Counted from the first letter of the stretch, positions 7,012-23,616 are shown. The stretch: 64,000 bases of DNA from Candidatus Multivorans sp. (GCA_965224025.1 OZ245033.1:640001-704000), one strand, 5' to 3'. Numbers and translations are program-made. The notes: generated by a model from the sequence alone, not told the origin.

Positions 7012-8121
7012 TCAGGAGCAGCCCTCGCGCGTTTCATCGATCAGGCCGTCGACGACCGCGTTCAGGTCGGCCTCTTCGGCCCGTCTCAACTGGCGGTCGG
7101 CGCTCGTGCCCTCGGCGAGGATGGTGTGGACGTACTCGGCTTCCTTGCGGATGCCGAGTTCGTCCAGTACGTCGTCGACGAACTCCATCAACTCCCGGAT
7201 CAGGAACCGTAGCGGCACCTCCTCGGCCTTGCCGAAGTCGATCATCTTGCCGTCGATGCCGTATCTCATCGCGCGCCACTTGTTCTCGTAGAGCAGGTGA
7301 CGGGGGTAGCGCCTCCAGGCCTGGTTGTTGCGGCGCAGGCGGATCAACTTGCCGACGATCGCCATGAACAGGGCCGTCAGGCACAGCGCCTCCTCGATCT
7401 TCGTGCAGACGTCGCAGACCCGGAACTCGATGGTCGGGAACTTGGGATGGGGCCGGACGTCCCACCAGATCTGGGTGGGTTCCTCGATGCATCTGGTCTG
7501 AACGAGCACGTTCACGAGCCGCTCGTACTCGGCGTAGGACCGGAGCGAGGGCGGCAGACCGGAGCGGGGGAGACTCTCGAAGACCACCGAGCGGTAGGAC
7601 TTGAGTCCGGTCTTGCGCCCCTGCCAGAGGGGCGAACTCGTCGACAGGGCGAGCAGATGGGGCAGGAAGTAGAGCGACTGGTCCATCACGTCGATGCGCA
7701 GGTCCCTGTCCGGCACCCCGACGTGGACGTGCATGCCGAAGATCAGCATGCGCCGGGCGACGTCGCCGAAGTTCTCCTGCAGAGTGATGTAGCGCTGGGC
7801 ATCGGTGACGTCCTGCTCGCGCCAGGAGGAGAAGGGATGGGTGCTGGCGGCGGCGATTCGGAGGCCGTTGCGGGACGCCAGGTGGGAAATCGATCGCCGC
7901 AGGCGGATGAGTTCCTGGCGGGCCTCCCCGATCGTGCGGCAGACGTCGCTGCCCACTTCGACCTGGCACTGCAACTGCTCCGCCTTGATCTGCTCCTGGA
8001 GAACGATCTGACCCTGTTCGAGGAACTTCTGGATGAAGGGCTTCAGTTCCCGGCTCTCCGGGTCGATGATCTGGTACTCCTCCTCGATGCCGATCGTCAG
8101 CTCGGGAAGCTTCGTCTGCAT
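7012..8121 (-). CDS. ybdK: Carboxylate-amine ligase / glutamate-cysteine ligase 2 (YbdK, GCS2 family)
   Basis: TIGIEEEYQIID, IFGMHVHVG, WWDVRPHPKFPTIEFRVCD, ENKWRAMRYG. Confidence 0.92.
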   Translation of the reverse strand: MQTKLPELTIGIEEEYQIIDPESRELKPFIQKFLEQGQIVLQEQIKAEQLQCQVEVGSDVCRTIGEARQELIRLRRSISHLASRNGLRIAAASTHPFSSWREQDVTDAQRYITLQENFGDVARRMLIFGMHVHVGVPDRDLRIDVMDQSLYFLPHLLALSTSSPLWQGRKTGLKSYRSVVFESLPRSGLPPSLRSYAEYERLVNVLVQTRCIEEPTQIWWDVRPHPKFPTIEFRVCDVCTKIEEALCLTALFMAIVGKLIRLRRNNQAWRRYPRHLLYENKWRAMRYGIDGKMIDFGKAEEVPLRFLIRELMEFVDDVLDELGIRKEAEYVHTILAEGTSADRQLRRAEEADLNAVVDGLIDETREGCS

Positions 8122-8269
8122 GGTTCTTCTCCTCTACAGGGGAAGTTGTGCCTGGACTAGGAACGCTCGCAAGACTATCCGGCTGTGCTGGATGAGGGCC
8201 GGCGTTGCGGCCGCCCGAGCCGGTCTTTGCGGGAGCCCGCCTCCTCGCTCTGATACCGTCCCCGACTCA

Positions 8270-10051
8270 ATGAGCTGGTTCGCGACCATTGCCTCGCGTC
8301 CGCTTGTTCGTCGCCTGATCGCCGGCTGCCTCGCCCCCGCCGTCCTGCTCGGAGTCGCCTGCACCGGGGCTGAATCGGCGCGCGATGCCGAGGGCACTTC
8401 GGCCTGGAGCCTTGAAGGCAAGGCGCTGGCAGCGGAAGGGGAGCACGGGATGGTCGTCAGTGGTCATGGTCTGGCCTCCGAAGCCGGCGCCCGCGTCCTG
8501 GAACGGGGCGGCAACGCGATCGACGCGGCGGTGGCGGTCGGCTTCGCCCTGGCGGCGGTGCTGCCGGCTGCGGGCAACATCGGCGGCGGCGGCTTCCTGG
8601 TCCACCGGTCGAACGACGGCGAGATCCGCGCGCTCGACTACCGCGAGAAGGCGCCCGGAGCCGCCACCCGGGACATGTTCCTCGACGACAATGGCAAGGT
8701 CACCGAAAGCGCGGTCATCGGCCATCTTGCGGCCGGCGTGCCCGGATCCGTGGCCGGGCTGTGGGAGATGCACCGGGGGTACGGCTCCATGGCCTGGGTC
8801 GATCTGGTGGCCCCCGCGATCGAGTTTGCCCGCGGCCACGAGGTCGACGAGGTCCGGTCGCGGAGCCTCGGGTCGGCGGCCGAACGGCTCAACCGGTTTC
8901 CGGCCAGCGCCGAGCAGTTCCTGAACGCTGGCGAGGCGCCGGCGCCGGGGACGCTGCTGGAACAGCCCGACCTGGCAGCCACCCTGACGGCGATCGCCGA
9001 GCAGGGTCCGGACGGCTTCTACCGTGGCCCGGTCGCCGACCTGATCGTGGCCGAGATGGAGAGGGGCGGAGGCCTCATTTCGCACCAGGATCTCGCGGAC
9101 TACGCGCCGGTCTGGCGGGCGCCGGTCGAGGTCGAGTACCGCGGCCACACGATTTACTCCATGCCGCCGGTTTCGTCCGGCGGCTTGACCCTGGGCCTGA
9201 TCCTGAACGTGCTGGAGGGCTGGGATTCCCTGCCTCCGTTCGGCAGCGCCGAGCTGATCCACCTGGAGGCCGAAACGATGCGGCTCGCGTTCCGTGACCG
9301 CAACACGTTGCTCGGCGACCCGGACTTCGTCGACGTGCCGCGGGCCCAGTTCGAGTCCCAGGACTACGCCGGCGGGCTGCGGGCGCAAATCGATCCGGAC
9401 CGGGCGCAGCCGCTGCCACCGGTCGAGGTGGCGCCGCCGCGGGAAAGCACCGAGACGACGCACTACTCCGTGGTGGACCGCTGGGGCAACGCGGCCTCGA
9501 TCACCACCACGATCAACAGCGGCTACGGCAACGCGGTCACGGTCACCGGCGCCGGGTTCCTGCTCAACAACGAGATGGACGACTTCGCGGCCTCGCCGGG
9601 CCAGCCGAACCAGTTCGGGTTGGTGGAGGGCGAGAACAACGCGATCGTCCCCGGCAAACGGATGCTGTCGTCGATGACCCCGAGCATCGTCCTCGACCCG
9701 GAGGGCGAACTGATGATGGTTGTGGGCACCCCCGGCGGCCCGACGATCATCACCACCGTCTACCACGTGATCTCGAACGTTATCGACCACGGCATGACCC
9801 TGCGGGAGGCGGTCGAGAGTCCGCGGGTGCATCATCAGGCGTGGCCGGACCAGGTGTTCTACGAGGAAGGCGGTCTTTCCGCCGAAACGCTCGAGGGTCT
9901 GGCCGCGCGCGGCCACGAGCTGTTCGAGCGCGGCTTGAGCGGCGACGTGTCGGCGATCCGGGTGAGGGAAGAGGCGCTCGTCGGCGTCGCCGATCCGCGG
10001 CGGGGAGGCGGCGTCAGCGCGCCGCGGGGAGAGGCGCCCGCGGGCGGGTAG
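8270..10051 (+). CDS. ggt: Gamma-glutamyltransferase (likely lipoprotein)
   Basis: GGNAIDAAVA, GNIGGGGF, DYREKAP, autocleavage ETTHYSVVD, LNNEMDDF, PGKRMLSSMTP, GTPGG; lipobox-like LLGVAC. Confidence 0.95.
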   Translation: MSWFATIASRPLVRRLIAGCLAPAVLLGVACTGAESARDAEGTSAWSLEGKALAAEGEHGMVVSGHGLASEAGARVLERGGNAIDAAVAVGFALAAVLPAAGNIGGGGFLVHRSNDGEIRALDYREKAPGAATRDMFLDDNGKVTESAVIGHLAAGVPGSVAGLWEMHRGYGSMAWVDLVAPAIEFARGHEVDEVRSRSLGSAAERLNRFPASAEQFLNAGEAPAPGTLLEQPDLAATLTAIAEQGPDGFYRGPVADLIVAEMERGGGLISHQDLADYAPVWRAPVEVEYRGHTIYSMPPVSSGGLTLGLILNVLEGWDSLPPFGSAELIHLEAETMRLAFRDRNTLLGDPDFVDVPRAQFESQDYAGGLRAQIDPDRAQPLPPVEVAPPRESTETTHYSVVDRWGNAASITTTINSGYGNAVTVTGAGFLLNNEMDDFAASPGQPNQFGLVEGENNAIVPGKRMLSSMTPSIVLDPEGELMMVVGTPGGPTIITTVYHVISNVIDHGMTLREAVESPRVHHQAWPDQVFYEEGGLSAETLEGLAARGHELFERGLSGDVSAIRVREEALVGVADPRRGGGVSAPRGEAPAGG

Positions 10052-10120
10052 CGGGCCGCGCATGAGTGCTCGGCGCTTCCTGGCTGCGGAGACGTCACGC
10101 CGCGTGGTTGGCGAGATCCC

Positions 10121-13100
10121 ATGAGTGGCCGGCGCATCTTCGCCGCGGTGACGGTCGGTCACCTCGGAATCGACATCTTCAACAGCATGGGGCCGGTGCT
10201 GCTGGCCTTCCTGAAGGCGCCGCTCGGCTTGAGCGCCGCGCAGATCGGGCTTGCGGTGGGACTGTTCCAGGTCCTGGCCGGCACCACGCAGCCGGCCTTC
10301 GGCTGGCTGGTCGACCGGGTCGGCAGCCGCTTCCTGGGACCGTTCAGCGTCGCCTTCAACCTGGGGTGCATGGCGCTGGCGGTCGCTGCCGCCGCCGCGA
10401 CGGGGAGCTTCGGGCTGTTCCTCATTCCGTTCGCCCTCGCCGCGGTCGCCTCCGGCGCCTTCCATCCCCTGGGCGTGATGCACTCCAGTACGGTGAACGT
10501 GGCCCGCTCGGCCACGTTCACCGCCATCTTCTTCTTCTGCGGTCAGGTCGGGCTCACGACCGGGCCGTACCTGGCGGGGCTGGCTCTTGACCGGGCGGGG
10601 CTGACCGGGATCTTCTGGCTCGTGCTGATCGTGGCGCCCGTGCCTCTGTTCATGGCCTTCGCGATGGGGCCGCGACGATTCCACGCGGCGCCCCTGGCGG
10701 CGCAGCCGGAGGAGAAGCCGGAGGCTGCCGGTTCCGGAACTCCCGGCCCGCGGCCCCCCGTGCGGGTCGGGTTGATGGCCCTCCTGGCCCTCGTGTTCGC
10801 CAGCCGGTCCTGGGCGGTTTTCGGAACGATCGCGTTTCTTCCCCTCCTGCTGGCCGAACAGGGCTTCAGCTCCAGAGCCCAGGGACTCGCCAGCGGCATG
10901 TTTCTGCTGGGCGGCGCGGTGACCGCCGTCTTCGCCGGGGAATGGGCTGACCGCTGGGGTCGACGTCCGGTGGTCTTCCTGACCACGTTGCTCGGCGCCC
11001 TGCTCCTGGTCTTCCTGCCCGGCTCCGGCAACTGGACCTTTGCGCTGGCGCTGCCGTGCGGGGCCCTGCTGGGAGCGTCGCACTCGATTCTGATCGTCAT
11101 GGCCCAGTCGCTGCTGCCCTGGCGCCGGGGCCTGGCCTCGGGGACGGCGCTCGGCTTCCTGTTCGCGACCGGCGGGATCGCCACCTGGACGATCGGGGAA
11201 CTCGCCGATCGCTTCGAACTGGCCGCCGTGCTGCAGGCCGGCGCCGTCGTGGGCCTCGTGTCCGCCTGCGCCTCGCTGCTCCTGCCGAAACGGGAGCCGG
11301 CGCGACTGGCCGCGGCGCCGGCGGTTACGGCGGTGGTCGTGCTCGCGGTCGCGGCTTCGGTTCTTGCCTCGCCGCGACCGGCGTGGGCCCAGTTGAACGG
11401 CGAGATCAACGGGCAGGTGCGGAACGAGGCCACCGGAGAGCCTCTCGCCGGAGCCGAGATAAGAATCACGGGGGAGCAGTTGTACAGCCCGAGGATCGTC
11501 CGTGTCGGTGCCGGCGGCGGTTACCGGGCGCCGGGGCTGCCGCCCGGCAGCTACGGCGTGGAGGCGAGCCTGGAGGGGTTTGCGACCTCCGCGGCGGAGA
11601 ACCTGATCCTGGTCACCGGCGGTGTGCTGAGGGTCGACTTCGGTCTTCGCGCCGGCGGAGCCTCGAGTCTCGACTTCGTGTCGTCGCCCCTGCTCGACAT
11701 GGTCACCGGCAGCGACGGCAACGTTCTGACCGGAGACGACCTGCGGGAACTGCCCGGCTCGACGGCGGCGGTGAACCTGGACCTCGCCACGGGTCTGGAC
11801 GCGGTTGCCGGCGGACTGGCGGTCAGCGGCTGGTCTCCCGGACTCGCCAACTATCGGATCGACGGACAGGAAACGGCCATCGCTACCCGCGAAGCGACAG
11901 CGGTGGACCTCCATTGGGTCGATCAGGTACGCGTGCGGACGATGGACTTCGGGGCGGCTCTGGCCGGCCCGCACATCGACCTGATCACGCGGACCGGCGA
12001 CACGGCCTGGCGGGTGAACGGCGGCCTGTCGGCTGTCGAGCCGCTGGACCGGGCCGAGAGGCCGGCTCTGCGCCAGCAGGCCGGTGAGCAGGTTTCCTTC
12101 GGCGGCACCGACAGCAGGAAGATCTTCGGCGAAGAGGCCTACGTCTTCGTCGGCGGACCTCTGCGCGACGAGCGCGCGAGGGCGTTCGGCGGCCATTCGG
12201 TGGGCCGGGCCAGCGGCGTCTTCGATCTGTTCCTGGCCGGCGCGCCACTGACATGGCGGGAGACGACGGAGCTGTCGGTGGGCAAACTGGACTGGTGGGC
12301 CGGTTCGGCCAGCAACCTGAGCCTCAAGCATCACGAGGGGTCCACGGAACTGGATGGCCGTCGGCCCGCCCTGCTGGTGCTTCCCGACGGCGACGGTGTC
12401 GAGAGCAGGCGTTCCAGTCACCAGACGACGAGTCTGAACATCGAGTGGGGCATCACGGATCGGCTGTGGCTCCGGCTCTTCGGCGGCCGCTCCGACCTTC
12501 GCGATCGCGCCGATCCCTGGCAGGACACGGGCGCCTACTTCGTGGCGCCGGCCCCGGGTTTCGTCGCGGGCTCTTTGCGCCCCCGGGCCGCGGGCCCGCT
12601 GCGGCGGTTGGCGGCTCGCCGGAACTGGGCCGTGGAACCGTCGTTCTTCCTGTTCGATCACACGCTGGAGGTCGGCGTTCAGGGTACCCGCGGCGATCTG
12701 CAACTGCTGCGCTCCGATCATCCGGGACGGGAACTGCGGATTCCCGGCGGCCCCCTGCCGGACTGGCGCGGCGAGCCTCTCGGAGCGGGCGGTTTGCGGC
12801 AGGAGAAGCGGGCGCTCTATGTCCAGGACGCCTGGCGCCTGGCGGGAGTGTTCGACAGGCGCCTGACTCTGCATCTCGGCTTGCGCGCCGAGAAGGAGTC
12901 GACCGGGCCGCTCGAACTCGGCCTCGGCGATCGCACGGAACCCCGGATGGGCTTCGTCTGGGACGTCACCGAACGCGGCAAGTGGAAGGTCTACGGAGGC
13001 GCTGCCTGGTGGCACGTGGACGCCTACCGCCCCGTAGCCGGTCTAGCGGGCATCGACGGACTCGCGGCATTGCGGACGGCGGGATACTCCGGTTCGCCCC

Positions 13101-14068
13101 TGGTCTTCGAGCATGCCGCCGTCGATTCCGACCTGCGTCCCGGGCGGGTGCGGGAGGTCCAGTTGGGAACGAGATACCAGTTTCTGCCGGACGTGGTGAT
13201 TTCCGCGCGCCTTGCCCGTCGCCGGCTGCGCGACGGCATCCGGCTGGTTCCGGTGGAAGATGGCGGCGCGATCGTGCCGACGCTCCTGACGCCCGGCTTG
13301 GGCGCCGGTATGGGCGCCTGGGGAGGCGCGAGCCGCGATCTGCCGCGGCTGCAGCAGGACTGGTGGGGCGCCGAGCTCGGCGCGAACGTCGGTTTCGACC
13401 CGGCCTGGCGCGTTCACTTCACCTATCTTCTGAGTCGGCTTACGGGCAACCACGAGGCCGGCGGCCTGGCGCTCCAGGCCTTCAGTGGCACGGATGTTCA
13501 TCCGGGCGTGGCGGCGTTGGACCTCTGCTCGTCGCCGGTGCCCTGTGACGTCTTCGACGTGACAAACGAGAGTCGGCGCCTCGGAGTCGACCGCGAGCAC
13601 CAGCTCGCCGGCTGGCTCGTGCTGTCTCCCGGCGACCGGTTGGTTGCGGCCCTCGTCTACCGGTTCCGCACCGGCGGGTCGTACGTTCCGCGGACCATGG
13701 CGGTACGGGTCGACGAGGAGAACCGGATTCTCAGCACCGGACTCGCTCCGTTGCCTCCCGGTCCGGAGACACCGGTCAAGAGTTCGGACCTGAAGCGGGC
13801 GGACCTCGCGGTGACTCTGCGCATCCCCCTGCGCTCCGAGCATCGGCGGCTCGCGTTCTTCGCCGAGGCGCTGAACATCTTCGACCAGGACGCCGCCACC
13901 GAGCTCTGGCCCCTCGCCTACTTCGACCCGGTGCTGATCGGCGCTGGGGCCGGAAGCGCCGCGGACGCCGTCGCCGAGCAGCAGCCCAGGCGGGACGGCC
14001 GGGAAGGCCTCCCGGCAGCGTTCCAGAACAGCCGGCGGGTGCGGGCCGGGTTGCGGCTCCAGTTCTGA
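10121..14068 (+). CDS. Fusion of an Fsr-like MFS transporter, an internal signal peptide and an Oar-type TonB-dependent outer-membrane receptor
   Basis: MFS motifs GWLVDRVGSR, GAFHP and GEWADRWGRR. Then KREPAR-hydrophobic-AWA|Q, a carboxypeptidase-regulatory-like domain (GQVRNEATGEPLAGAEI...GLPPGSY), a plug (NYRIDG...IDLITRTG), a barrel (ALYVQDAW...LTLHLGLR) and C-terminal RVRAGLRLQF. One uninterrupted frame. Confidence 0.85.
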   Translation: MSGRRIFAAVTVGHLGIDIFNSMGPVLLAFLKAPLGLSAAQIGLAVGLFQVLAGTTQPAFGWLVDRVGSRFLGPFSVAFNLGCMALAVAAAAATGSFGLFLIPFALAAVASGAFHPLGVMHSSTVNVARSATFTAIFFFCGQVGLTTGPYLAGLALDRAGLTGIFWLVLIVAPVPLFMAFAMGPRRFHAAPLAAQPEEKPEAAGSGTPGPRPPVRVGLMALLALVFASRSWAVFGTIAFLPLLLAEQGFSSRAQGLASGMFLLGGAVTAVFAGEWADRWGRRPVVFLTTLLGALLLVFLPGSGNWTFALALPCGALLGASHSILIVMAQSLLPWRRGLASGTALGFLFATGGIATWTIGELADRFELAAVLQAGAVVGLVSACASLLLPKREPARLAAAPAVTAVVVLAVAASVLASPRPAWAQLNGEINGQVRNEATGEPLAGAEIRITGEQLYSPRIVRVGAGGGYRAPGLPPGSYGVEASLEGFATSAAENLILVTGGVLRVDFGLRAGGASSLDFVSSPLLDMVTGSDGNVLTGDDLRELPGSTAAVNLDLATGLDAVAGGLAVSGWSPGLANYRIDGQETAIATREATAVDLHWVDQVRVRTMDFGAALAGPHIDLITRTGDTAWRVNGGLSAVEPLDRAERPALRQQAGEQVSFGGTDSRKIFGEEAYVFVGGPLRDERARAFGGHSVGRASGVFDLFLAGAPLTWRETTELSVGKLDWWAGSASNLSLKHHEGSTELDGRRPALLVLPDGDGVESRRSSHQTTSLNIEWGITDRLWLRLFGGRSDLRDRADPWQDTGAYFVAPAPGFVAGSLRPRAAGPLRRLAARRNWAVEPSFFLFDHTLEVGVQGTRGDLQLLRSDHPGRELRIPGGPLPDWRGEPLGAGGLRQEKRALYVQDAWRLAGVFDRRLTLHLGLRAEKESTGPLELGLGDRTEPRMGFVWDVTERGKWKVYGGAAWWHVDAYRPVAGLAGIDGLAALRTAGYSGSPLVFEHAAVDSDLRPGRVREVQLGTRYQFLPDVVISARLARRRLRDGIRLVPVEDGGAIVPTLLTPGLGAGMGAWGGASRDLPRLQQDWWGAELGANVGFDPAWRVHFTYLLSRLTGNHEAGGLALQAFSGTDVHPGVAALDLCSSPVPCDVFDVTNESRRLGVDREHQLAGWLVLSPGDRLVAALVYRFRTGGSYVPRTMAVRVDEENRILSTGLAPLPPGPETPVKSSDLKRADLAVTLRIPLRSEHRRLAFFAEALNIFDQDAATELWPLAYFDPVLIGAGAGSAADAVAEQQPRRDGREGLPAAFQNSRRVRAGLRLQF

Positions 14069-14104
14069 TTGATCTACCCGGCGGGGGAGAGGGGCGTCAG
14101 CGCC

Positions 14105-14491
14105 CTACCACGAGATCCGCACCGGATACTGGGAGACCAGCCTGTCCGGTGTGACCAGCGTCATCCCGTGCTCGATCGCCTGGCAGATCAGTAGGCGGTC
14201 GAAGGGGTCCTTGTGGAGGGGCGGGAGACGTTGTAGCTGCAGAGCGCTCGCTTCATCGAAGGGAAGGCTCTCAAAACCGTGGCGCCTGCGCTGTTCGGGC
14301 ACGAAGAGCTGAGGATCCTGTGGTAACGGCAATCGGCCGAGTCCGTGTTTCACGGCGATTTCCCAAGCCGATGATGCGCTGAGATATACGGTGTACGCCG
14401 GGTCGGACACGGAGCTTCGGACGGTCGCCGGCAGCCTGCGGTCATCCAGGCACCACCAGAGGAAGGTGCAGGTGTCGAGTAGCAGCTTCAC
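14105..14491 (-). CDS. vapC: VapC PIN-domain toxin
   Basis: GTG start overlapping the antitoxin stop; LLLDTCTFLW, SAWEIAVK, HKDPFDRLLICQA. Confidence 0.92.
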   Translation of the reverse strand: MKLLLDTCTFLWWCLDDRRLPATVRSSVSDPAYTVYLSASSAWEIAVKHGLGRLPLPQDPQLFVPEQRRRHGFESLPFDEASALQLQRLPPLHKDPFDRLLICQAIEHGMTLVTPDRLVSQYPVRISW

Positions 14492-14745
14492 TCGCCGGGG
14501 AAGACCGGTCCGTTCTCGAAGGCTTCGATGAAGTCGTCCGGCAGCGGATCGAAGAACGACTCCGGGATCGTGAACTGTCCGCGGCACAGTCCAATGGGTC
14601 GGGGCTTCTTGCGCTCCCGCGGCAGCGGCCGGATCTCGGCGACCGGCTTGTTGCGACGGCAGAGGATGATCGTCTCGCCTTCCTTGAGTTCGGCGATGTG
14701 GTGGGACAGGTGGGTCTTCGCTTCGTGCATGTTGAGGCGCTTCAT
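14488..14745 (-). CDS. Phd/YefM-family antitoxin
   Basis: LNMHEAKTHLS...GETIILCRRNKPVAEI...FFDPLPDD; directly upstream of the PIN gene. Confidence 0.9.
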   Translation of the reverse strand: MKRLNMHEAKTHLSHHIAELKEGETIILCRRNKPVAEIRPLPRERKKPRPIGLCRGQFTIPESFFDPLPDDFIEAFENGPVFPGE

Positions 14746-14922: not shown

Positions 14923-17649
14923 CTACACTAGGCCGCTCAACCGCCGGAGCGCCGCCAGCAGGTCGGGCTTCTTCGTCAACACACCGCGCAGCGGGTCGGT
15001 CTTGAGCTTCTTCAACCGTTCGGGCAGCGACCGGATGTCGTGGTTTCGCAGGTCGAGGCCGGGTTTGACCTCGGACCAGCGGAGCGGCGTCGAGACCGGG
15101 GCGGCGGGCAACGGCCTGACGCTGAACGGGGCGACGAGCAACCGGCCGCGGCCGTTCTGGACGAAATCGATGTAGACCCTGCCGCCGCGGCGTTCGGGGT
15201 TGCGGGTGACGGTGGCGATGTCGGGCAACTGGCGGCAGATGATCTGGGCGATGAGTTGGCCGAGGCCGCGGGACTGTTCGAAGGTGCAGGCGCCGCCGAG
15301 CGGCAGGAGCACGTGCAGGCCGCTTGAACCGCTGGTCTTGACGAAGCTGGGCAGCTTGATCCGCCGGCACAGGCGGCGGATGGCCACGGCGATCTTGATC
15401 ACGTCCTCGAACGGGGCGTCCTTGGGGTCGAGGTCGAGGATGCACCAGTCGGGCTGGCCGAGCTGGTGCAGCCGGCTCGACCAGACGTGGAGGACGATCG
15501 CGCCCAGGTTGGCGATGTAGATCAGGCTCTCCCGGTCTTGGCAGACGAAGTAGTCGACTTCCTTGTCCGTTCGCGGGCTGACGAGCTTGACCGTGTGCAG
15601 CCAGTCGGGCGCGAAGTCGGGTGCGTTCTTCTGGAAGAACGATTTGCCATCGATTCCGTCGGGGTAGCGGGTCATCACCAGCGGACGGTCGGTGAGGTAG
15701 GGCTGCATCGCGTCGGCGATGGCGGCGTAGAAGTCGATCAGGTCGCCTTTGGTGTAGCCCTCGGCGGGCCAGAACACCTTGGACCTGTTCGTCACCTCGA
15801 CGCGGCGCTCGGGCGGTGGCGGCGGGTCGGTGCCCGGGGCTCGCGGCCCGGCGCGGCGCACGCAGTCCTCGATCGGCTTGTCGTCCCGCAGCCGGAGGAA
15901 GACCGGGTGCCGGAGCATGCCGTGGGGCGTCCACTCCTTGTAGCGGACCTCGCAGATCAGTTCCGGGTTCGGATCGATCCAGGTCTGGTCTTCGATCCGG
16001 CCGTCCAGGAGATCGTCGTCGGTGAGAACGGCCGCGGCCGGCGGGTCCGTCGACGGCGAACCGCAGGAGTTCGGGGTTGTCGGGGAGGCGTTCGCGCTCG
16101 CGGGGCTCGCCTGAGCGTCCTCGACCCCTCGCGGCGCGCGGCAGGGCGGGGTTTCGCGGCGCAGCGTGCCCAGGCGTTCCGCCAGCTCCGCCAGGTCCGC
16201 ATCGCTGAAGCCCGTGCCGACACGCCCGGCGTAGACCAGTCCACCCTGCTCGCCGCTGCCCGGCCGTCCAGGTGCGAGCTCCGGGTCCCAGACGGCGAGG
16301 TGCAGCGAGCCCAAGCCGACCCGGCTGCCCTTGGGAGGCGACATGCCGACGATCACGAGGTCGGCCGTCTGCTCGGTGCGGAGCTTGACCCACGACGACG
16401 AGCGGCGGCCGACGTAGAGGGAGTCGCCGTCCTTGGCCATCGCTCCCTCGAGTCCCATGGCCGTCACCTGCTCGAAGAACGCCTCGCCCCGTTCCTCGAT
16501 GTGGTCCGAGTAACGGAGCGGTCCGGCCGGGGGCAGCACCTTCGCCAGCAGGGCCTTGCGTTCCAGGAGCGGCAGCGACCGCAGGTCCGATCCCTCGAAC
16601 GCCACGAGATCGAAGGCGAACAGGGTCGCGGGCCGGCGCACCGCGGCTCGTTCGATGTCGACCGGGCGGCTGAGCAGGGCGCGCGTCTGCAACCGGGCGA
16701 AGCTCGGCCTGCCGCCGACGTTGAGGACCGTGACCTCGCCGTCCAGGACGAGAGACCGCACCGGCAGCGCCCGCAGGGACCGGGTGAGCTCCGGGTAGAG
16801 CGCGGTCACGTCGCCGCCGTTCCGGTAGCGAAGGAAGACGCTGCCGCCTTCCTTCGCCGCCACCAGCCGGTAGCCGTCGTACTTCAACTCGTAGATCCAG
16901 CCTTCGCGGGAGAACGGCCGGTCGCCGGTGACCGCGAGCATCAACGGCAGCGAGCGCGGATCGACCCGCCGGCGGCGCGCTTCCGAGGCGCCGACCTCGA
17001 CGCGAACCTCCTCGATTCGCTCGCAGCCGTCCCGGAGCTCCTCGACGGTCAGGCCGGAGAGCACGGACTGCTGCGCCAGGTCGTCCTCGCCGCCGTCCGC
17101 GCCGGCCCCGTCGTTCGCACCGTCGCCCGATTGCGGCCGCGCGGCGGCGTCCGGCTTCTTCATCAGCAACCACTGGCTGCCGTCCTCCGTCTGGCGGCGG
17201 CCGTCGGTGCGGAACAGGGTCCAGACGCCGCGCAACTTGTAGCCGTGGAGTTCAAAGAGGAGCTTGCCGTTCTCCATGCCGGCGACCGGGTCCTCGAGCG
17301 GCCTCCAGCGCCCGCCGTCCCACACGATCATCGCCCCGGCGCCGTAGTTGCCGGCGGGGATCGATCCCTCGAAGTCGGCGTACTCCAGCGGGTGGTCCTC
17401 GGTGGCCACCGCCAGACGCTTGACCTCGGGGTCGAGGCTGGGCCCCCTCGGTACGGCCCAGGACTTCAGCGTGCCTTCGAGTTCCAGGCGCAGGTCGAAG
17501 TGGACGCGGCGGGCGGCGTGCTTCTGGACCACGAAGCGGCCGGCGCCGGTCCCCGTCGCGGGACCGAAAGGCTCCGGCGTCGCCTCGCTCGATCGCTTGC
17601 GGCGGTAGGCCTCGAGATTGCCGCTGTGCGGGCCAGGCATCCGCGGCAT
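14923..17649 (-). CDS. ligD: DNA ligase D (phosphoesterase-ligase-polymerase), NHEJ
   Basis: PE domain FVVQKHAARRVHFDLRLE...EDHPLEY; ligase ELKYDGYR; polymerase RYPDGIDG..FFQK, ILDLDP, KTSGSSGLH. Confidence 0.95.
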   Translation of the reverse strand: MPRMPGPHSGNLEAYRRKRSSEATPEPFGPATGTGAGRFVVQKHAARRVHFDLRLELEGTLKSWAVPRGPSLDPEVKRLAVATEDHPLEYADFEGSIPAGNYGAGAMIVWDGGRWRPLEDPVAGMENGKLLFELHGYKLRGVWTLFRTDGRRQTEDGSQWLLMKKPDAAARPQSGDGANDGAGADGGEDDLAQQSVLSGLTVEELRDGCERIEEVRVEVGASEARRRRVDPRSLPLMLAVTGDRPFSREGWIYELKYDGYRLVAAKEGGSVFLRYRNGGDVTALYPELTRSLRALPVRSLVLDGEVTVLNVGGRPSFARLQTRALLSRPVDIERAAVRRPATLFAFDLVAFEGSDLRSLPLLERKALLAKVLPPAGPLRYSDHIEERGEAFFEQVTAMGLEGAMAKDGDSLYVGRRSSSWVKLRTEQTADLVIVGMSPPKGSRVGLGSLHLAVWDPELAPGRPGSGEQGGLVYAGRVGTGFSDADLAELAERLGTLRRETPPCRAPRGVEDAQASPASANASPTTPNSCGSPSTDPPAAAVLTDDDLLDGRIEDQTWIDPNPELICEVRYKEWTPHGMLRHPVFLRLRDDKPIEDCVRRAGPRAPGTDPPPPPERRVEVTNRSKVFWPAEGYTKGDLIDFYAAIADAMQPYLTDRPLVMTRYPDGIDGKSFFQKNAPDFAPDWLHTVKLVSPRTDKEVDYFVCQDRESLIYIANLGAIVLHVWSSRLHQLGQPDWCILDLDPKDAPFEDVIKIAVAIRRLCRRIKLPSFVKTSGSSGLHVLLPLGGACTFEQSRGLGQLIAQIICRQLPDIATVTRNPERRGGRVYIDFVQNGRGRLLVAPFSVRPLPAAPVSTPLRWSEVKPGLDLRNHDIRSLPERLKKLKTDPLRGVLTKKPDLLAALRRLSGLV

Positions 17650-17814: not shown

Positions 17815-18771
17815 ATGCCTGCTCGTACCATTGGCGCCGGCACCGTATCGTTCGGCTTGGTCTCGATTCCGGTTCGCTTGTACTCCACGTCGGAGACCTC
17901 GGGCGCGGTGCGCTTCAACATGCTGGACCCGACGGACAACACGCGGGTCAAGCAGCAGTTGGTCAACCAGCGGACCGGCACCGAGGTGAAGCGCAAGGAG
18001 ACGATCAAGGGTTACGAGTTCGGCAAGGGGCAGTACGTCACGTTCAGCAACGAGGAGATCAAGGAACTCCAGGAGAAGGCCTCGCCGGCGATCGAAATCA
18101 CCGAGTTCGTGCCGCTTGCGGAAGTCGAGCCGATCTACTTCGAGAAGTCGTACTACCTGGGGCCGGAGAAGGGCGGCGAGCGCGCCTACCGGCTGCTCAG
18201 CGAGGCAATGCGGAAGGCGGGCCGCTCGGCGCTGGCCAAGCACGCGGCCCGCGGCAAGCAGTATCTCGTCATGTTGCGGCCGTACGCGCAGGGCCTGCTC
18301 ATGCAGCAACTGAAGTACGAGGACGAGTTGAAGTCCTTCGGCGAAGTGCCCCTGGGTGAAGAGACGGAGCTCAAGCCCGGCGAACTCGACCTCGCCGTGC
18401 AACTGATCGAGCAGATTGCCTCCGACGAGTTCACGCCCGAGCAGTACACGGACGAAGTGCGCAAGCGGCTGTGGGAGGCGATTCAGAGCAAGATCGAGGG
18501 CCGCGAGGTGGCCGAGGACGAAACGGAGGCGCCGCAGGCGCAGATCATCGACCTGATGGAGGCGCTCAAGGCGAGCCTCTCGAAGGACGGCGACGGCGAC
18601 AAGGAGTCGGCTGCCCGCAAGCCGAAGGCCGGCTCGCGCAAGGCCGGTTCCCGAAAGGCCGGGGCCGATGCCAAGGCGGCCAAGAAGAAAGCCGCCGGCA
18701 GCAAGACGACTAGCAAGAAGCGCACGCGCCGGGCGAAGACGGAACCGGCGCGCAGGACCGCGGTTGGTTGA
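17815..18771 (+). CDS. ku: Ku protein (NHEJ) with a basic C-terminal tail
   Basis: GTVSFGLVSIPVRLY, IKGYEFGKGQYV, YFEKSYYLGP, IIDLMEALKASL; Lys/Ala-rich tail; divergent from ligD. Confidence 0.95.
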   Translation: MPARTIGAGTVSFGLVSIPVRLYSTSETSGAVRFNMLDPTDNTRVKQQLVNQRTGTEVKRKETIKGYEFGKGQYVTFSNEEIKELQEKASPAIEITEFVPLAEVEPIYFEKSYYLGPEKGGERAYRLLSEAMRKAGRSALAKHAARGKQYLVMLRPYAQGLLMQQLKYEDELKSFGEVPLGEETELKPGELDLAVQLIEQIASDEFTPEQYTDEVRKRLWEAIQSKIEGREVAEDETEAPQAQIIDLMEALKASLSKDGDGDKESAARKPKAGSRKAGSRKAGADAKAAKKKAAGSKTTSKKRTRRAKTEPARRTAVG

Positions 18772-20158: not shown

Positions 20159-21640
20159 ATGGAAGGCGGCGGCAACAACGTCATCCTGGCCTGCATCGGC
20201 CTCTATCTCGTGGTCTGCGTCGGCGTCGGACTGTGGGCGCTGCGGCGCACGAAGTCGACGAAGGACTTCTTCATGGCCGGCCGCGACCTGGGGATCATCG
20301 TCACCGCCCTGGCTGTGTTCTCCAGCACGCTGTCGGGCTTCGGATTCGTCGGCGGCCCGGGGCTTGTCTACCGCATGGGCATGAGCTCGCTGTGGATGGT
20401 GATCTGCTCGTCGGTGGGTTACGTGATCGCGTTCTACCTGCTCGGCAAGCGCCTGCGGCTGTTCGCGGAGCTGCGTGACTCGATCTCGCTGCCCGACGCC
20501 GTGGCGGCCCGCTACAAGAGCCAGTGGAGCCGGGGGCTGACGGCACTCGCCATCCTGCTCGGCGTGATGGGCTACCTGGGAACCCAGATCCTGGCCATGG
20601 CGACGGTCCTCCAGGACATTCTCCAGCGCAGCTTCGGACCGATCAGCATCGGGGCCTGCGTCGCCTTCTCATGTGCCGTGCTCGTGTTCTACTGCGTTAC
20701 CGGGGGCATCATCGCTTCGGTCTACACCGACCTCATCCAGGGCTTCGTCATGATGGTGGCGGCAGTGCTGGTGCTGCTGGCCGCGGTCGCGGCGATAGAC
20801 GGCGGCTTCGCCGGCATGAGCGAGACGATCATGGCCGACGACGCGGAGGCGATGGGGCCGTGGGGCACGGCCGGGATGATGAACTCGCTCTCCTGGTACT
20901 TCGTCTTCGCCCTCGGCCTGGCCGGGCAACCGCACATCATCACGAAGATGATGATGTGCCGCCGGGTGCGGGACGCGCGCAGCATTCTGCCGGTTTCCAT
21001 CGCGGCCTACGCGGTCTCGGCCCTGTTGTGGATCAGCATCGGCCTGGTGATGCGGGCCTTGGTGCTTCAGGGGACCCACCCGGAGATTCCAGGCGCCGAC
21101 GCGGCGGCGCCGCAGTTCCTGCAGGCGTTCGCTCATCCGCTCCTCGCCGGCGTCGTCTTCGCGGGCTTGTTCGCGGCGATCATGTCGACCGCGGACGGCT
21201 TCCTGAACATCGGCGCCGCGGCCGTCGTCCACGACATTCCGCGCGCCCTCTTCGGCCGCTCGCTCAGGAACGAACTGCGGTGGGCCCGGATCGTGACCGT
21301 GATCATCGCCGTCGCGGCTTCCCTGTTCGCCCTCTACAGCGGCCAGGACCTCGTCGCCCTGCTCGGCGCCTTCGGCTGGGGCACCTTCGCCGCCGCCCTG
21401 GTGCCCGCGGTGGCCATCGGCTTCAACTGGAAACGCGCCACCGCGACAGCGGCCAACGTGGCCATCGGCTCCAGCCTGGCGATCAACTTCGGGGTTCAGG
21501 TCTCGAGTTTGCCGGTGCCGTACGGCATCGACGTCGGCGCCCTCTCCCTCCTCGTCTCCCTGACCCTCTTCTTCGGCATCTCCCTGCTGTCCAAACCGCC
21601 GCAACTCGACCGCGATATCGCGGCGGTCATGGACATGTAG
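20159..21640 (+). CDS. Sodium:solute symporter (SSS; PutP/PanF-like)
   Basis: DFFMAGR, SGFGFVGGPG, GGIIASVYTDLIQG, GQPHI, AAIMSTAD. Confidence 0.92.
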   Translation: MEGGGNNVILACIGLYLVVCVGVGLWALRRTKSTKDFFMAGRDLGIIVTALAVFSSTLSGFGFVGGPGLVYRMGMSSLWMVICSSVGYVIAFYLLGKRLRLFAELRDSISLPDAVAARYKSQWSRGLTALAILLGVMGYLGTQILAMATVLQDILQRSFGPISIGACVAFSCAVLVFYCVTGGIIASVYTDLIQGFVMMVAAVLVLLAAVAAIDGGFAGMSETIMADDAEAMGPWGTAGMMNSLSWYFVFALGLAGQPHIITKMMMCRRVRDARSILPVSIAAYAVSALLWISIGLVMRALVLQGTHPEIPGADAAAPQFLQAFAHPLLAGVVFAGLFAAIMSTADGFLNIGAAAVVHDIPRALFGRSLRNELRWARIVTVIIAVAASLFALYSGQDLVALLGAFGWGTFAAALVPAVAIGFNWKRATATAANVAIGSSLAINFGVQVSSLPVPYGIDVGALSLLVSLTLFFGISLLSKPPQLDRDIAAVMDM

Positions 21641-21897: not shown

Positions 21898-23616
21898 ATG
21901 TACATCGAACGGGTACCCAACCGAAACTCACCACCAGCCGTCCTGCTGAGAGAGTCCTACCGACAGGACGGAAAGGTCAAGAAACGCACTCTCGCCAACC
22001 TCTCCAAGTGGCCCGACCAACTCGTCGAAGGACTCAGAACCCTGCTCAAGGGAGGAGTCGCCCTGCCTTCGCTCGAGGCAGCCTTCGAGATCCTGCGCGC
22101 CAGACCGCACGGCCACGTCGCCGCCGTCCTCGGCGCGGCCCGAAGCCTCGGCCTCGAACGGCTCCTCGATCGACGGCCCTCGCGCGAGCGGGCGCTGGCG
22201 CTGGCCATGATCGCGGCCCGCATCCTCGAGCCGCGATCCAAGCTCGCCACCGCCCGCGGACTCGCAAGCGAGACCATGAGCCACACCCTCGGCGAGGAAC
22301 TCGGCGTGCAGGAGGCCTCGGCCGACGAACTCTACGGCGCCATGGACTGGCTGCTCGAAAAACAGCCGCGCATCGAGCGGACTCTTGCCCGGCGGCATCT
22401 GGAAGACGGCTCGCTGGTGCTCTGCGACGTGACCTCGGTCTACTTTGAGGGCAGGAAGTGCACGCTGGCCAGGCACGGCTACTCCAGGGACAAGAAGAGA
22501 GGCAAGGTCCAGATCGTCTTCGGCCTGCTCTGCAGCCGGGACGGATGCCCGGTCGCGGTCGAGGTATTCGAGGGCAACACGGCCGATCCGACGACCCTGA
22601 ACGCCCAGGTGCAGAAGCTCCGCGACCGCTTCTCGCTGGAGAGGATCGTGATGGTCTCAGACCGGGGCCTGATCACCGACGCGCGCATCCGCGAGGACCT
22701 CGACCCCGCGGGCCTGTCCTGGATCAGCGCCCTGCGCGCGCCGGCGATCAGGACGCTGGCCCAGGAAGGCCACCTGCAACTGTCGCTCTTCGACCAGCGG
22801 AAGATGGCCGAGATCAGGGTTCCGGAGCTGTACCCGAAGGAGCGCCTCGTGGTGTGCCGGAACCCGCTTCTGGCGGAGGAACGCGGCCGCAAGCGCCAGG
22901 AGCTTCTCGAAGCCACCGAGCGCAAGCTCGACGCCGTCGTTGCGGCGACGCGGCGCAAGAAGAACCCCCTGCGCGGCAAGGACGCCATCGCCGTGCGCGC
23001 GGACCGCGCCCGGGGCGCCTACAAGGTCGGCAAGCACTTCGAGGTCGAGATCGAAGAGGACGGCTTCCAATACCGCCGCAACGAGGCGCGCATCGCCGAG
23101 GAAGCCGCTCTCGACGGCTTCTACGTCATCCGCACCAACGTCCCCGAAGACGAACTGCCGGCAGCCGATGCGGTCCGCGCCTACAAGAGCCTCAGCCGCG
23201 TCGAACGCGCCTTCCGCTCCTACAAGAGCGTCGACCTCAAAGTGCGCCCCGTCCACCATCGCCCGGCCTCGAGGGTGCGCGCCCATGTCTTCCTCTGCAT
23301 GCTCGCCTACTACGTCGAGTGGCACATGCGCCGGACCCTGGCGCCCATCCTCTTCGACGACCAACGCCGCGACGACCAACGCGAGTCGCCAGTCGATCCC
23401 GCGCGCAGGTCGCCCGAGGCGATGGCCAAGGCCAACTCCCGGAGGACCCCCGACGGACTCCCCGTCCACAGCTTCCAGACCTTGCTCGCCGACCTGGCCA
23501 CGCTGACCCGAAACCGGGTGCGGATGCACGGCGACGCCGACTCCACAGCCGACGTCCTCGCACGGCCCACTCCACTCCAGAACGAAGCCTTCAAGCTACT
23601 CGGCATCCGCCCCTGA
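21898..23616 (+). CDS. IS1634-family DDE transposase
   Basis: MYIERVPNR..LLRESYR; DDE candidates CDVTSVYFEG, SDRG, VERAFR; HVFLCMLAYY. Confidence 0.92.
   Translation: MYIERVPNRNSPPAVLLRESYRQDGKVKKRTLANLSKWPDQLVEGLRTLLKGGVALPSLEAAFEILRARPHGHVAAVLGAARSLGLERLLDRRPSRERALALAMIAARILEPRSKLATARGLASETMSHTLGEELGVQEASADELYGAMDWLLEKQPRIERTLARRHLEDGSLVLCDVTSVYFEGRKCTLARHGYSRDKKRGKVQIVFGLLCSRDGCPVAVEVFEGNTADPTTLNAQVQKLRDRFSLERIVMVSDRGLITDARIREDLDPAGLSWISALRAPAIRTLAQEGHLQLSLFDQRKMAEIRVPELYPKERLVVCRNPLLAEERGRKRQELLEATERKLDAVVAATRRKKNPLRGKDAIAVRADRARGAYKVGKHFEVEIEEDGFQYRRNEARIAEEAALDGFYVIRTNVPEDELPAADAVRAYKSLSRVERAFRSYKSVDLKVRPVHHRPASRVRAHVFLCMLAYYVEWHMRRTLAPILFDDQRRDDQRESPVDPARRSPEAMAKANSRRTPDGLPVHSFQTLLADLATLTRNRVRMHGDADSTADVLARPTPLQNEAFKLLGIRP

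Follow-up and report, generated by a model that had tools for sequence, protein, structure and literature searches.

In a 64,000-nucleotide stretch of Candidatus Multivorans sp. DNA (GCA_965224025.1 OZ245033.1:640001-704000, hereafter the window), one open reading frame (ORF) joins a complete permease of the major facilitator superfamily (MFS) to a TonB-dependent transporter (TBDT) of the outer membrane through an internal signal peptide. Comparative analysis indicates that this fusion is a real, selected gene with a single origin, on the stem lineage of the Candidatus Multivorans clade. Its polypeptide is probably cut by signal peptidase I into an inner-membrane permease and an outer-membrane receptor, a cleavage that we predict from the conservation of the site. 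The ORF occupies positions 10121-14068 of the plus strand, on which all parts of the fusion lie (+), and comprises an ATG start, 1315 codons and a stop. A sequence-only reading of the window had drawn attention to this uninterrupted frame, and both the ORF listing and the translation bear it out. The junction reads LLLP-KREPAR-LAAAPAVTAVVVLAVAASVLA-SPRPAWA/QLNGEING, the slash marking the predicted cut before Gln424 (11390), and the protein ends in RVRAGLRLQF.

The length of the frame is weak evidence here, because the DNA is G+C-rich and the opposite strand holds a 1582-codon open frame (8267-13015, -), antisense to the fusion and to the upstream gamma-glutamyltranspeptidase (GGT) gene and almost certainly a chance ORF. 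What shows the fused frame to be real is therefore its in-frame homology together with its conservation across species. Conservation was followed in two overlapping sets, which are not independent samples: 24 genomes of the same genus, and a species-level set made of the window and 36 clade loci. Of the 24 same-genus genomes, 20 match residues 1-1315 or 2-1315 without interruption, at 69-92% identity, and the frame crosses the junction in 23 of them; the others show frame changes in the barrel (G012, G017), contig ends (G008) or halves in different frames (G011). At species level 36 of the 37 members keep the frame across the junction, and 33 have the ORF uninterrupted at full length, the exceptions being a contig end (L026), two frame breaks in the barrel (L032, L064) and one split at the junction (L057, which is G011). 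The breaks in L032 and L064 (also G012 and G017), which lie in two draft genomes at about residues 1095-1103 and 657-824, are possibly assembly errors or decaying copies. Sixteen genomes from other families of the order gave weak matches to the N-terminal region of the receptor only. A scan of one genome per species names the clade as Candidatus Multivorans / Candidatus Multivoraceae (Thermoanaerobaculia, Acidobacteriota), represented exclusively by metagenome-assembled genomes; it is apparently associated with sponges, a point taken from metagenome run labels alone and not established.

Protein searches delimit the fusion in the same way. A word-indexed search of 5.8 billion proteins returned 35 clusters (90% clustering, the window's protein counted) that carry the fused junction at 70-100% identity, after which the next matches were ordinary receptors at E-values of 4e-5 and weaker. 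In the databases, the fullest names given to the fused proteins are 'MFS transporter' and 'FSR family ... MFS transporter'. An exhaustive phmmer search of 1.84 billion 50%-identity representatives with residues 116-1315, which had no length restriction and could reveal fusions only among relatives of this protein, yielded a single fused representative (P0004) among the best 150 of 7527 matches. Separate proteins of the G011 type also occur among the phmmer matches, one receptor-only (P0038, 63%) and one MFS-only (P0039, 66%). Look-alikes in the Protein Atlas were ordinary CarboxypepD_reg receptors only (score 0.75), with no fused cluster, a result that is uninformative because only clusters of at least 50 members were searched.

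Both halves of the gene are under purifying selection. Nine fused pairs with dS values of 0.25-1.16 gave ratios of nonsynonymous to synonymous substitution rates (dN/dS) of 0.11-0.23 in the MFS half and 0.14-0.29 in the receptor half. A recent readthrough accident, which the sequence-only reading had considered, is at odds with this selection and with a fusion kept by 36 of 37 clade members to a dS of about 1.1; separate genes are limited to relatives beyond the clade and to a single nested member. More generally, the frame might be an assembly indel, a recent readthrough or a pseudogene without function as a fusion. Frame changes in three of the 37 members (L032 and L064 in the barrel, L057 at the junction), the abundance of long chance ORFs in this DNA and a read check that is perhaps not independent would all suit such an explanation. 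Contigs from two public runs, compared over 10900-11900, differ from the window in no letter and show no indel, in agreement with the frame as first read. Against an artefact stand the in-frame junction itself, the low dN/dS of both halves (0.11-0.29 overall) and a fused clade that is recovered at 100/100 with the split member nested. Since the same junction recurs in 36 separately assembled species-level genomes, we take an artefact, whose probability we put close to nil, as excluded.

The two halves of the fusion group differently. MFS identity to the window is about 83-85% in both sets of members (L025-L058, L077), and receptor identity is about 88% in one set (L029, L036, L037, L040) against about 67% in the other (L027, L028, L030 and others). 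L036 and L037 fall with the L027 set in the MFS tree and with the window in the receptor tree, a discordance that suggests recombination near the junction.

The sole clade member with its MFS and receptor in different frames is L057 (G011:C1:3265800-3271800). Its MFS stop codon, TGA, overlaps a CTG exactly at the position of the relic start codon described below, and gene callers start the receptor of this type (P0038) only inside its N-terminal extension (NTE). Both of its halves give dN/dS values of 0.30-0.32. In a maximum-likelihood MFS tree that recovers the fused clade, L057 is sister to the fused L055 (97/85) on a long terminal branch (0.55, versus 0.17 in its sister), and L056 and the L049-L053 group diverge earlier than L057. 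A receptor FastTree rooted on split relatives, a quick tree, also places it among fused members. Because L057 is nested inside the fused clade in both trees, its split is secondary, and the idea that it had retained the ancestral split state was rejected. The L057 state could be a true split, a case of recoding or an assembly indel.

Residues 1-389 (10121-11287) form a complete 12-helix MFS permease, as the sequence-only reading had claimed. Pfam MFS_1 (PF07690) matches at 95.2 bits, against a cut-off of 33.4, with its best stretch at residues 21-250. An AlphaFold model of residues 1-520, built from an alignment of 45 sequences (A3), contains two groups of six helices (2-35, 39-67, 72-94, 97-122, 127-159 and 162-182; 216-246, 251-279, 281-301, 303-331, 336-364 and 367-385) with a loop at 183-215 between them. 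The predicted local distance difference test (pLDDT), taken over blocks of ten residues, is mostly 83-98 in this half and falls to 60-73 at residues 121-140. The half can also be aligned over its whole length with relatives of about 400 residues that stand alone and end 5-25 residues past the LLLP motif. The 12 modelled helices and this end-to-end alignment together indicate that the permease is complete; by MFS topology its C-terminus should therefore be cytoplasmic. The two motif-A loops noted earlier, GWLVDRVGSR at residues 61-70 and GEWADRWGRRP at 273-283, lie between modelled helices and fit what we take to be the motif A consensus for the loops between helices 2-3 and 8-9; Gly61, Asp65 and Arg70 of the first loop are invariant in alignment A1.

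Regarding the family of this permease, the label 'Fsr-like' comes from the JGI name of homologue P0007 alone ('FSR family fosmidomycin resistance protein-like MFS transporter'). The points of likeness to the Fsr family are the 12 helices and the JGI name of a fused homologue. No family-specific NCBIfam model matched the fused protein above cut-off, and a search of the MFS half against solved structures by sequence gave no match at E ≤ 0.01. Among the best 150 of 7527 phmmer matches, the nearest stand-alone MFS relatives are 45-49% identical and belong to Acidobacteriota, Chloroflexota and Planctomycetota. One further protein of 785 residues (P0129) is 43% identical to the MFS half over its residues 117-312; its remaining approximately 470 residues have no Pfam match and could represent another fusion or a frame-shifted call.

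The second half of the protein has the layout of a TBDT. The carboxypeptidase-regulatory-like domain that had been read after the signal is supported above the curated cut-off by Pfam CarboxypepD_reg (PF13620, 52.9 bits against 32.3) at residues 429-509 (11405-11647). It constitutes the NTE and is modelled as beta strands (residues 32-114 of the receptor model). Such an extension before the plug defines the Oar subclass as described in a TBDT survey (PMC6434023), and on this domain order we assign the receptor half to that subclass. A putative plug follows at approximately residues 517-655 (11669-12085), corresponding to model elements 122-254, and was only partly upheld. Positions of about 119-361 of profile A2 match the plug regions of PirA (25-260), Cir (10-150) and FepA (28-169) with E-values of 3.5e-16 to 1.6e-13, and the modelled fold agrees, but Pfam Plug (PF07715) gave no match to the fused protein at E ≤ 0.1.

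The beta-barrel extends from about residue 662 to the terminal phenylalanine at 1315 (12104-14065), with a match to TonB_dep_Rec_b-barrel (PF00593) at residues 766-1097 (38.6 bits; cut-off 27). Alignment A2 (53 sequences) gave a model of residues 396-1315 with a pLDDT of 81.4 and a predicted template modelling score (pTM) of 0.82. Its elements are a helix, then a beta sandwich and a mixed domain, and lastly a long series of barrel strands. Every PDB match that Foldseek listed for it (E 8e-39 to 6e-30) is a TBDT or a SusC component, the best being YddB, FusA and PqqU (8e-39 to 1e-37), followed by PirA and Cir (to 5e-35). The barrel and C-terminal phenylalanine of the sequence-only reading are thus confirmed by profile, fold and sequence end. 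With its aromatic last residue and alternating hydrophobic residues, the AGLRLQF end fits what is presumably the C-terminal signal for the beta-barrel assembly machinery (BAM). The same genome holds nine TonB_C matches, one BamA gene and two signal peptidase I genes.

Between the two halves lies a segment with the three regions of a signal peptide. A basic cytoplasmic loop, KREPAR (residues 390-395, 11288-11305), identified by translation and alignment, would form its n-region. Next come a hydrophobic 13th helix (residues 396-416, 11306-11368), modelled at 400-415, and the c-region SPRPAWA (residues 417-423, 11369-11389). The signal peptidase I cut is predicted between Ala423 and Gln424 (11389/11390) on the basis of conservation. 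Across 36 fused sequences, position -1 is alanine without exception and position -3 is alanine in 34 and valine in two. Proline occupies position -4 in 31 sequences and -6 in 29; position -2 varies (S, A, W, H and others). The basic n-region is also kept, with K/R at -34 in 33 of 36, R/Q/K at -33 in 34 and R at -29 in 27, and the columns of the hydrophobic core each hold three to five different hydrophobic residues. Beyond the predicted cut, position +1 is G in 21 sequences, Q in eight, S in six and R in one, and L-N-G-E-I-N is invariant from +2 to +7. The classical Sec-type signal that had been proposed therefore holds across the 36 fused sequences, with a basic n-region, a hydrophobic core and small residues at -3 and -1. 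Conserved -1, -3 and proline positions around a variable core are as expected under selection by signal peptidase I, the cleavage itself being deduced from this pattern.

Residues 395-402 at the boundary of the n-region and the hydrophobic region (R-L-A-A-A-P-A-V, 11303-11326) are nearly invariant, the commonest residue accounting for 27-34 of the 36 sequences in each column, unlike the freely variable core beyond them.

The internal signal resembles the N-terminal signals of 24 further full-length, paralogous Oar-like receptors encoded by the same genome, which consist of a methionine, basic residues and uncharged runs of 12-22 residues, often ending in A-x-A before a glutamine. By eye, about half of these 24 receptors (genome G000) have a glutamine after the apparent A-x-A, and a subgroup of them has the sequence LxADGPQTGTI after the signal in common.

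These elements suggest the following route. The ribosome would make a single 1315-residue chain, for which the lack of a conserved internal start speaks. The 12 MFS helices would insert co-translationally with both ends in the cytoplasm, as is general for polytopic proteins of this kind. KREPAR would stay cytoplasmic and helix 13 would insert N-in/C-out, following the positive-inside rule, and the next approximately 890 residues would be threaded through SecYEG. Signal peptidase I would then cut after the conserved P-x-P-A-x-A, between Ala423 and Gln424. The permease would retain the signal as a 13th helix with its PAWA end in the periplasm. The freed receptor, starting with QLNGEING, would be handed to BAM and fold into the outer membrane, as its fold and C-terminal phenylalanine suggest. 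The outcome would be equimolar synthesis of the outer- and inner-membrane transport steps of one pathway. We infer, rather than observe, that the single chain is the sole source of receptor, that it is cleaved, where its products come to lie and what they transport.

Several observations weigh against this route. In the AlphaFold model the 13th helix comes after a disordered stretch, and its blocks have pLDDT values of 44-55. The receptor lacks a match to the Pfam Plug model, and no TonB box was identified in it, the candidate found by eye being a strand, SLDFV, before PLLD (about residues 525-536). Support from reads is weak because both public runs represent one sample, possibly the source of the assembly, so that the agreement at the junction may derive from the assembly's own sample. 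Since the two halves of L057 still evolve at a dN/dS of about 0.3, the fused state may not be obligatory. The two remaining points, the length of the hydrophobic run and a relic ribosome-binding site, bear on the two alternatives that follow.

First, the signal might act as an uncleaved anchor, so that helix 13 stays in place and the receptor NTE is tethered to the inner membrane; one chain would then bridge both membranes, or the receptor would never reach the outer membrane. Long hydrophobic signal cores can serve as uncleaved anchors, and the uncharged run of 23 residues found here exceeds those of all 24 paralogous signals. Only about five residues separate the predicted cut from the first NTE strand. 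An N-terminal tether is topologically possible because the NTE faces the periplasm in Oar-type receptors, as described for the subclass (PMC6434023). Such an anchor would, however, leave no obvious reason for alanine at -1 and alanine or valine at -3 in 36 of 36 sequences, or for the prolines at -4 and -6, to be kept while the core varies. By a rough estimate, the c-region, the NTE and the NTE-plug linker of about 35 residues would barely span the periplasm at best, and the ancestral receptor carried an ordinary cleavable N-terminal signal. We consider an uncleaved anchor improbable. A shade less probable still is its extreme form, in which the uncut protein would be a covalent trans-envelope conduit made of a 13-helix permease and a 22-strand-type barrel, with the NTE positioned over its own permease. 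A milder version would have the protein cut, yet with the retained helix 13 and the receptor NTE keeping both products associated.

Secondly, the receptor might be translated mainly from an internal start at codon 396, the fused frame being a tolerated by-product. This alternative is best weighed together with the origin of the fusion, which can be traced in split relatives. A receptor gene lies directly downstream of the MFS gene in five of 44 non-fused loci (L059, L065, L069, L071, L087), all from Acidobacteriota and with MFS identities of 51-60%; no such adjacency was found among the Chloroflexota or Planctomycetota relatives in these 44 loci. Start and stop codons overlap by four nucleotides in three of the five pairs (GTGA in L059 and L069, ATGA in L087). 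In L071 an AGGAGG and a TTG start follow in a short gap after the MFS stop, and L065 has a longer spacer. Each split receptor opens with its own start codon and an ordinary N-terminal signal peptide, and measures 782-852 residues where complete. Such adjacent pairs with overlapping start and stop codons, in the same GCS2-GGT locus, imply that the fusion came from a translationally coupled operon pair.

In an alignment of the junction DNA fixed at codon -28, the fused genes carry CGGGAGC followed, after 8-9 nucleotides, by CTG (11306-11308), and L069 carries GGGGAGC followed, after 8 nucleotides, by GTG, which is the start codon of its receptor. From this short alignment, the K-R-E codons appear to descend from the ribosome-binding site of the receptor gene and Leu396 from its start codon, an upstream frame change having joined the two frames. 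Such a frame change would have merged the Fsr-like MFS gene with the downstream Oar-type receptor gene and turned the receptor's N-terminal signal into an internal one.

The relic itself lends some weight to internal initiation. Codon -28, which aligns with the start of the split relatives, is CTG in 27, TTG in four and GTG in one of the 36 fused sequences. A relic GGGAG stands about nine nucleotides before this near-cognate CTG in many members, so low-level initiation is possible, and the split L057 keeps both halves at a dN/dS of about 0.3 with its CTG overlapping the MFS stop. CTG is, however, the commonest leucine codon here; in the neighbouring conserved leucine columns it makes up 30 of 34 and 33 of 35 codons, a frequency that codon -28 does not exceed. 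At codon -28, L077 has TTC and L040 has GTC, and GGGAG is absent from L041, L049, L052, L056 and L077. The decay of a strong start to a weak or non-start codon speaks against selection for it. A product started at -28 would have no basic n-region, and separate translation would not need an in-frame junction, which is nonetheless kept in 36 of 37 members over a dS of about 1.

Other codons offer no conserved substitute. As the sequence-only reading had noted, the junction contains no in-frame ATG; in-frame GTG codons occur only at -19 and -17, within the hydrophobic core. The independent internal start that it had allowed for is not conserved, with ATG, GTG or TTG at -28 in five of the 36 fused sequences. 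The position that most often holds an in-frame codon able to start translation is -19 (25 of 36), midway along the hydrophobic core. A canonical start lies upstream of the basic residues in only two sequences (L030, L077), and three (L029, L041, L054) lack any canonical in-frame start from -15 upstream. We judge internal initiation as the main source of receptor to be unlikely, and retain the single chain cut by signal peptidase I as the probable course.

The genes around the fusion bear on its function. The sequence-only reading had taken a co-oriented upstream ggt as a hint at the substrate. That gene (8033-10051, +) is identified by PF01019 (E 3.4e-163), and the link proved stronger than first proposed, GGT lying upstream of the MFS start in 37 of 37 clade members and in eight split relatives. 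Its true start is likely the ATG at 8270, which would be followed by a lipoprotein-like signal (LLGVAC). A divergent gene (7012-8121, -) encodes a GCS2-family carboxylate-amine / glutamate-cysteine ligase (PF04107, E 7.7e-61). The gene order in split relatives is GCS2 (-), GGT, GAF-GGDEF, MFS and receptor, with GCS2 confirmed in L071 only; GGT is upstream in four of the five split-pair loci, the other being L059, a short contig. A diguanylate cyclase gene of the GAF-GGDEF type lies between GGT and MFS in all four split relatives scanned (L065, 4565-5800; L069, 4748-5902; L071, 4785-5927; L087, 4672-5874). In the window the fusion follows GGT directly, and GAF-GGDEF is absent at that position. 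Because the GGT and GCS2 neighbours are conserved, the pathway probably handles gamma-glutamyl compounds or their products, the substrate being a guess made with low confidence. The receptor might take up a compound that periplasmic GGT cleaves, the MFS permease then taking up the product. Fsr-type MFS proteins are named for efflux. Oar supports protein export (PMC6434023).

A scan of 7900-14700 for promoters and terminators gave no promoter-like site and four terminator-like sites against 3.8 expected, and carries no information. A PIN-domain gene lies directly downstream of the fusion (14105-14587, -). Beyond it stand a four-domain LigD gene (14923-17649, -) and a divergent Ku gene (about 17850-18771, +), a bacterial end-joining pair; since the Ku domain takes up residues 795-975, most of the 1101-codon Ku frame is a chance extension. 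Further genes in the window encode a sodium:solute symporter (20159-21640, +) and a DDE transposase (21898-23616, +).

Compared with the split Acidobacteriota loci, the fusion has the same MFS family followed by a CarboxypepD_reg TonB-dependent-type receptor, the difference being that those loci use two genes. With the Oar subclass, exemplified by Oar of Myxococcus xanthus (PMC6434023), it shares the order of NTE, putative plug and barrel; it differs in that a whole 12-helix permease precedes the signal peptide. Oar exports a protease according to the same source (PMC6434023), and nothing in the fusion indicates direction. That survey of 34,893 TBDTs describes, its supplements aside, five N-terminal architectures, none of them with an MFS (PMC6434023). 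A comparable functional arrangement is the sux CUT locus of Xanthomonas campestris (SuxA/SuxC), for which the published account describes a TBDT and an MFS protein acting in series on one substrate with an enzyme gene adjacent (PMC1790865). The window has GGT in the enzyme's place and a single reading frame, whereas in sux the genes and proteins are separate.

Regarding the proposed processing, a parallel is the FbcH cytochrome b-c1 precursor of Bradyrhizobium japonicum, reportedly a polytopic protein with an internal signal peptide from which a downstream protein is released by processing. The freed part of FbcH is said to stay on the periplasmic side of the inner membrane; the part released in the present case would instead be an outer-membrane barrel of about 890 residues that requires BAM. 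A search of titles and abstracts found no published description of an MFS-TBDT fusion, nor of a bacterial internal-signal polyprotein of such a kind, and none of the literature found bears the name 'Candidatus Multivorans'. Both protein families, and the pairing of a TBDT with an MFS protein within one locus, were already known. The novelty lies in an outer-membrane barrel that is encoded as a C-terminal extension of a permease of the inner membrane, an architecture confined, among the matches listed, to one uncultured clade.

The usual view of outer-membrane barrels is that each is synthesised as a precursor of its own, with a signal at the N-terminus, and that its export follows translation or falls in the late stages of it. 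If the proposed route is true, a barrel of about 890 residues is made only as the tail of a polytopic protein and is forced through co-translational insertion and internal-signal processing. The fusion would then offer a test case for how SecYEG changes over from helix insertion to the threading of a long barrel precursor. It would likewise be one for signal peptidase I cutting behind 12 helices, and for a barrel exported in this manner still reaching BAM. The evolutionary path can be read in the sequences, from a coupled pair with overlapping stop and start codons, through a frame change, to the decay of the start codon to leucine. As a Rosetta-stone link, the fusion suggests that an MFS family with no close characterised member works with an Oar-type receptor and GGT, and it may thus help to explain what two large and little-understood groups of Acidobacteriota transporters do.

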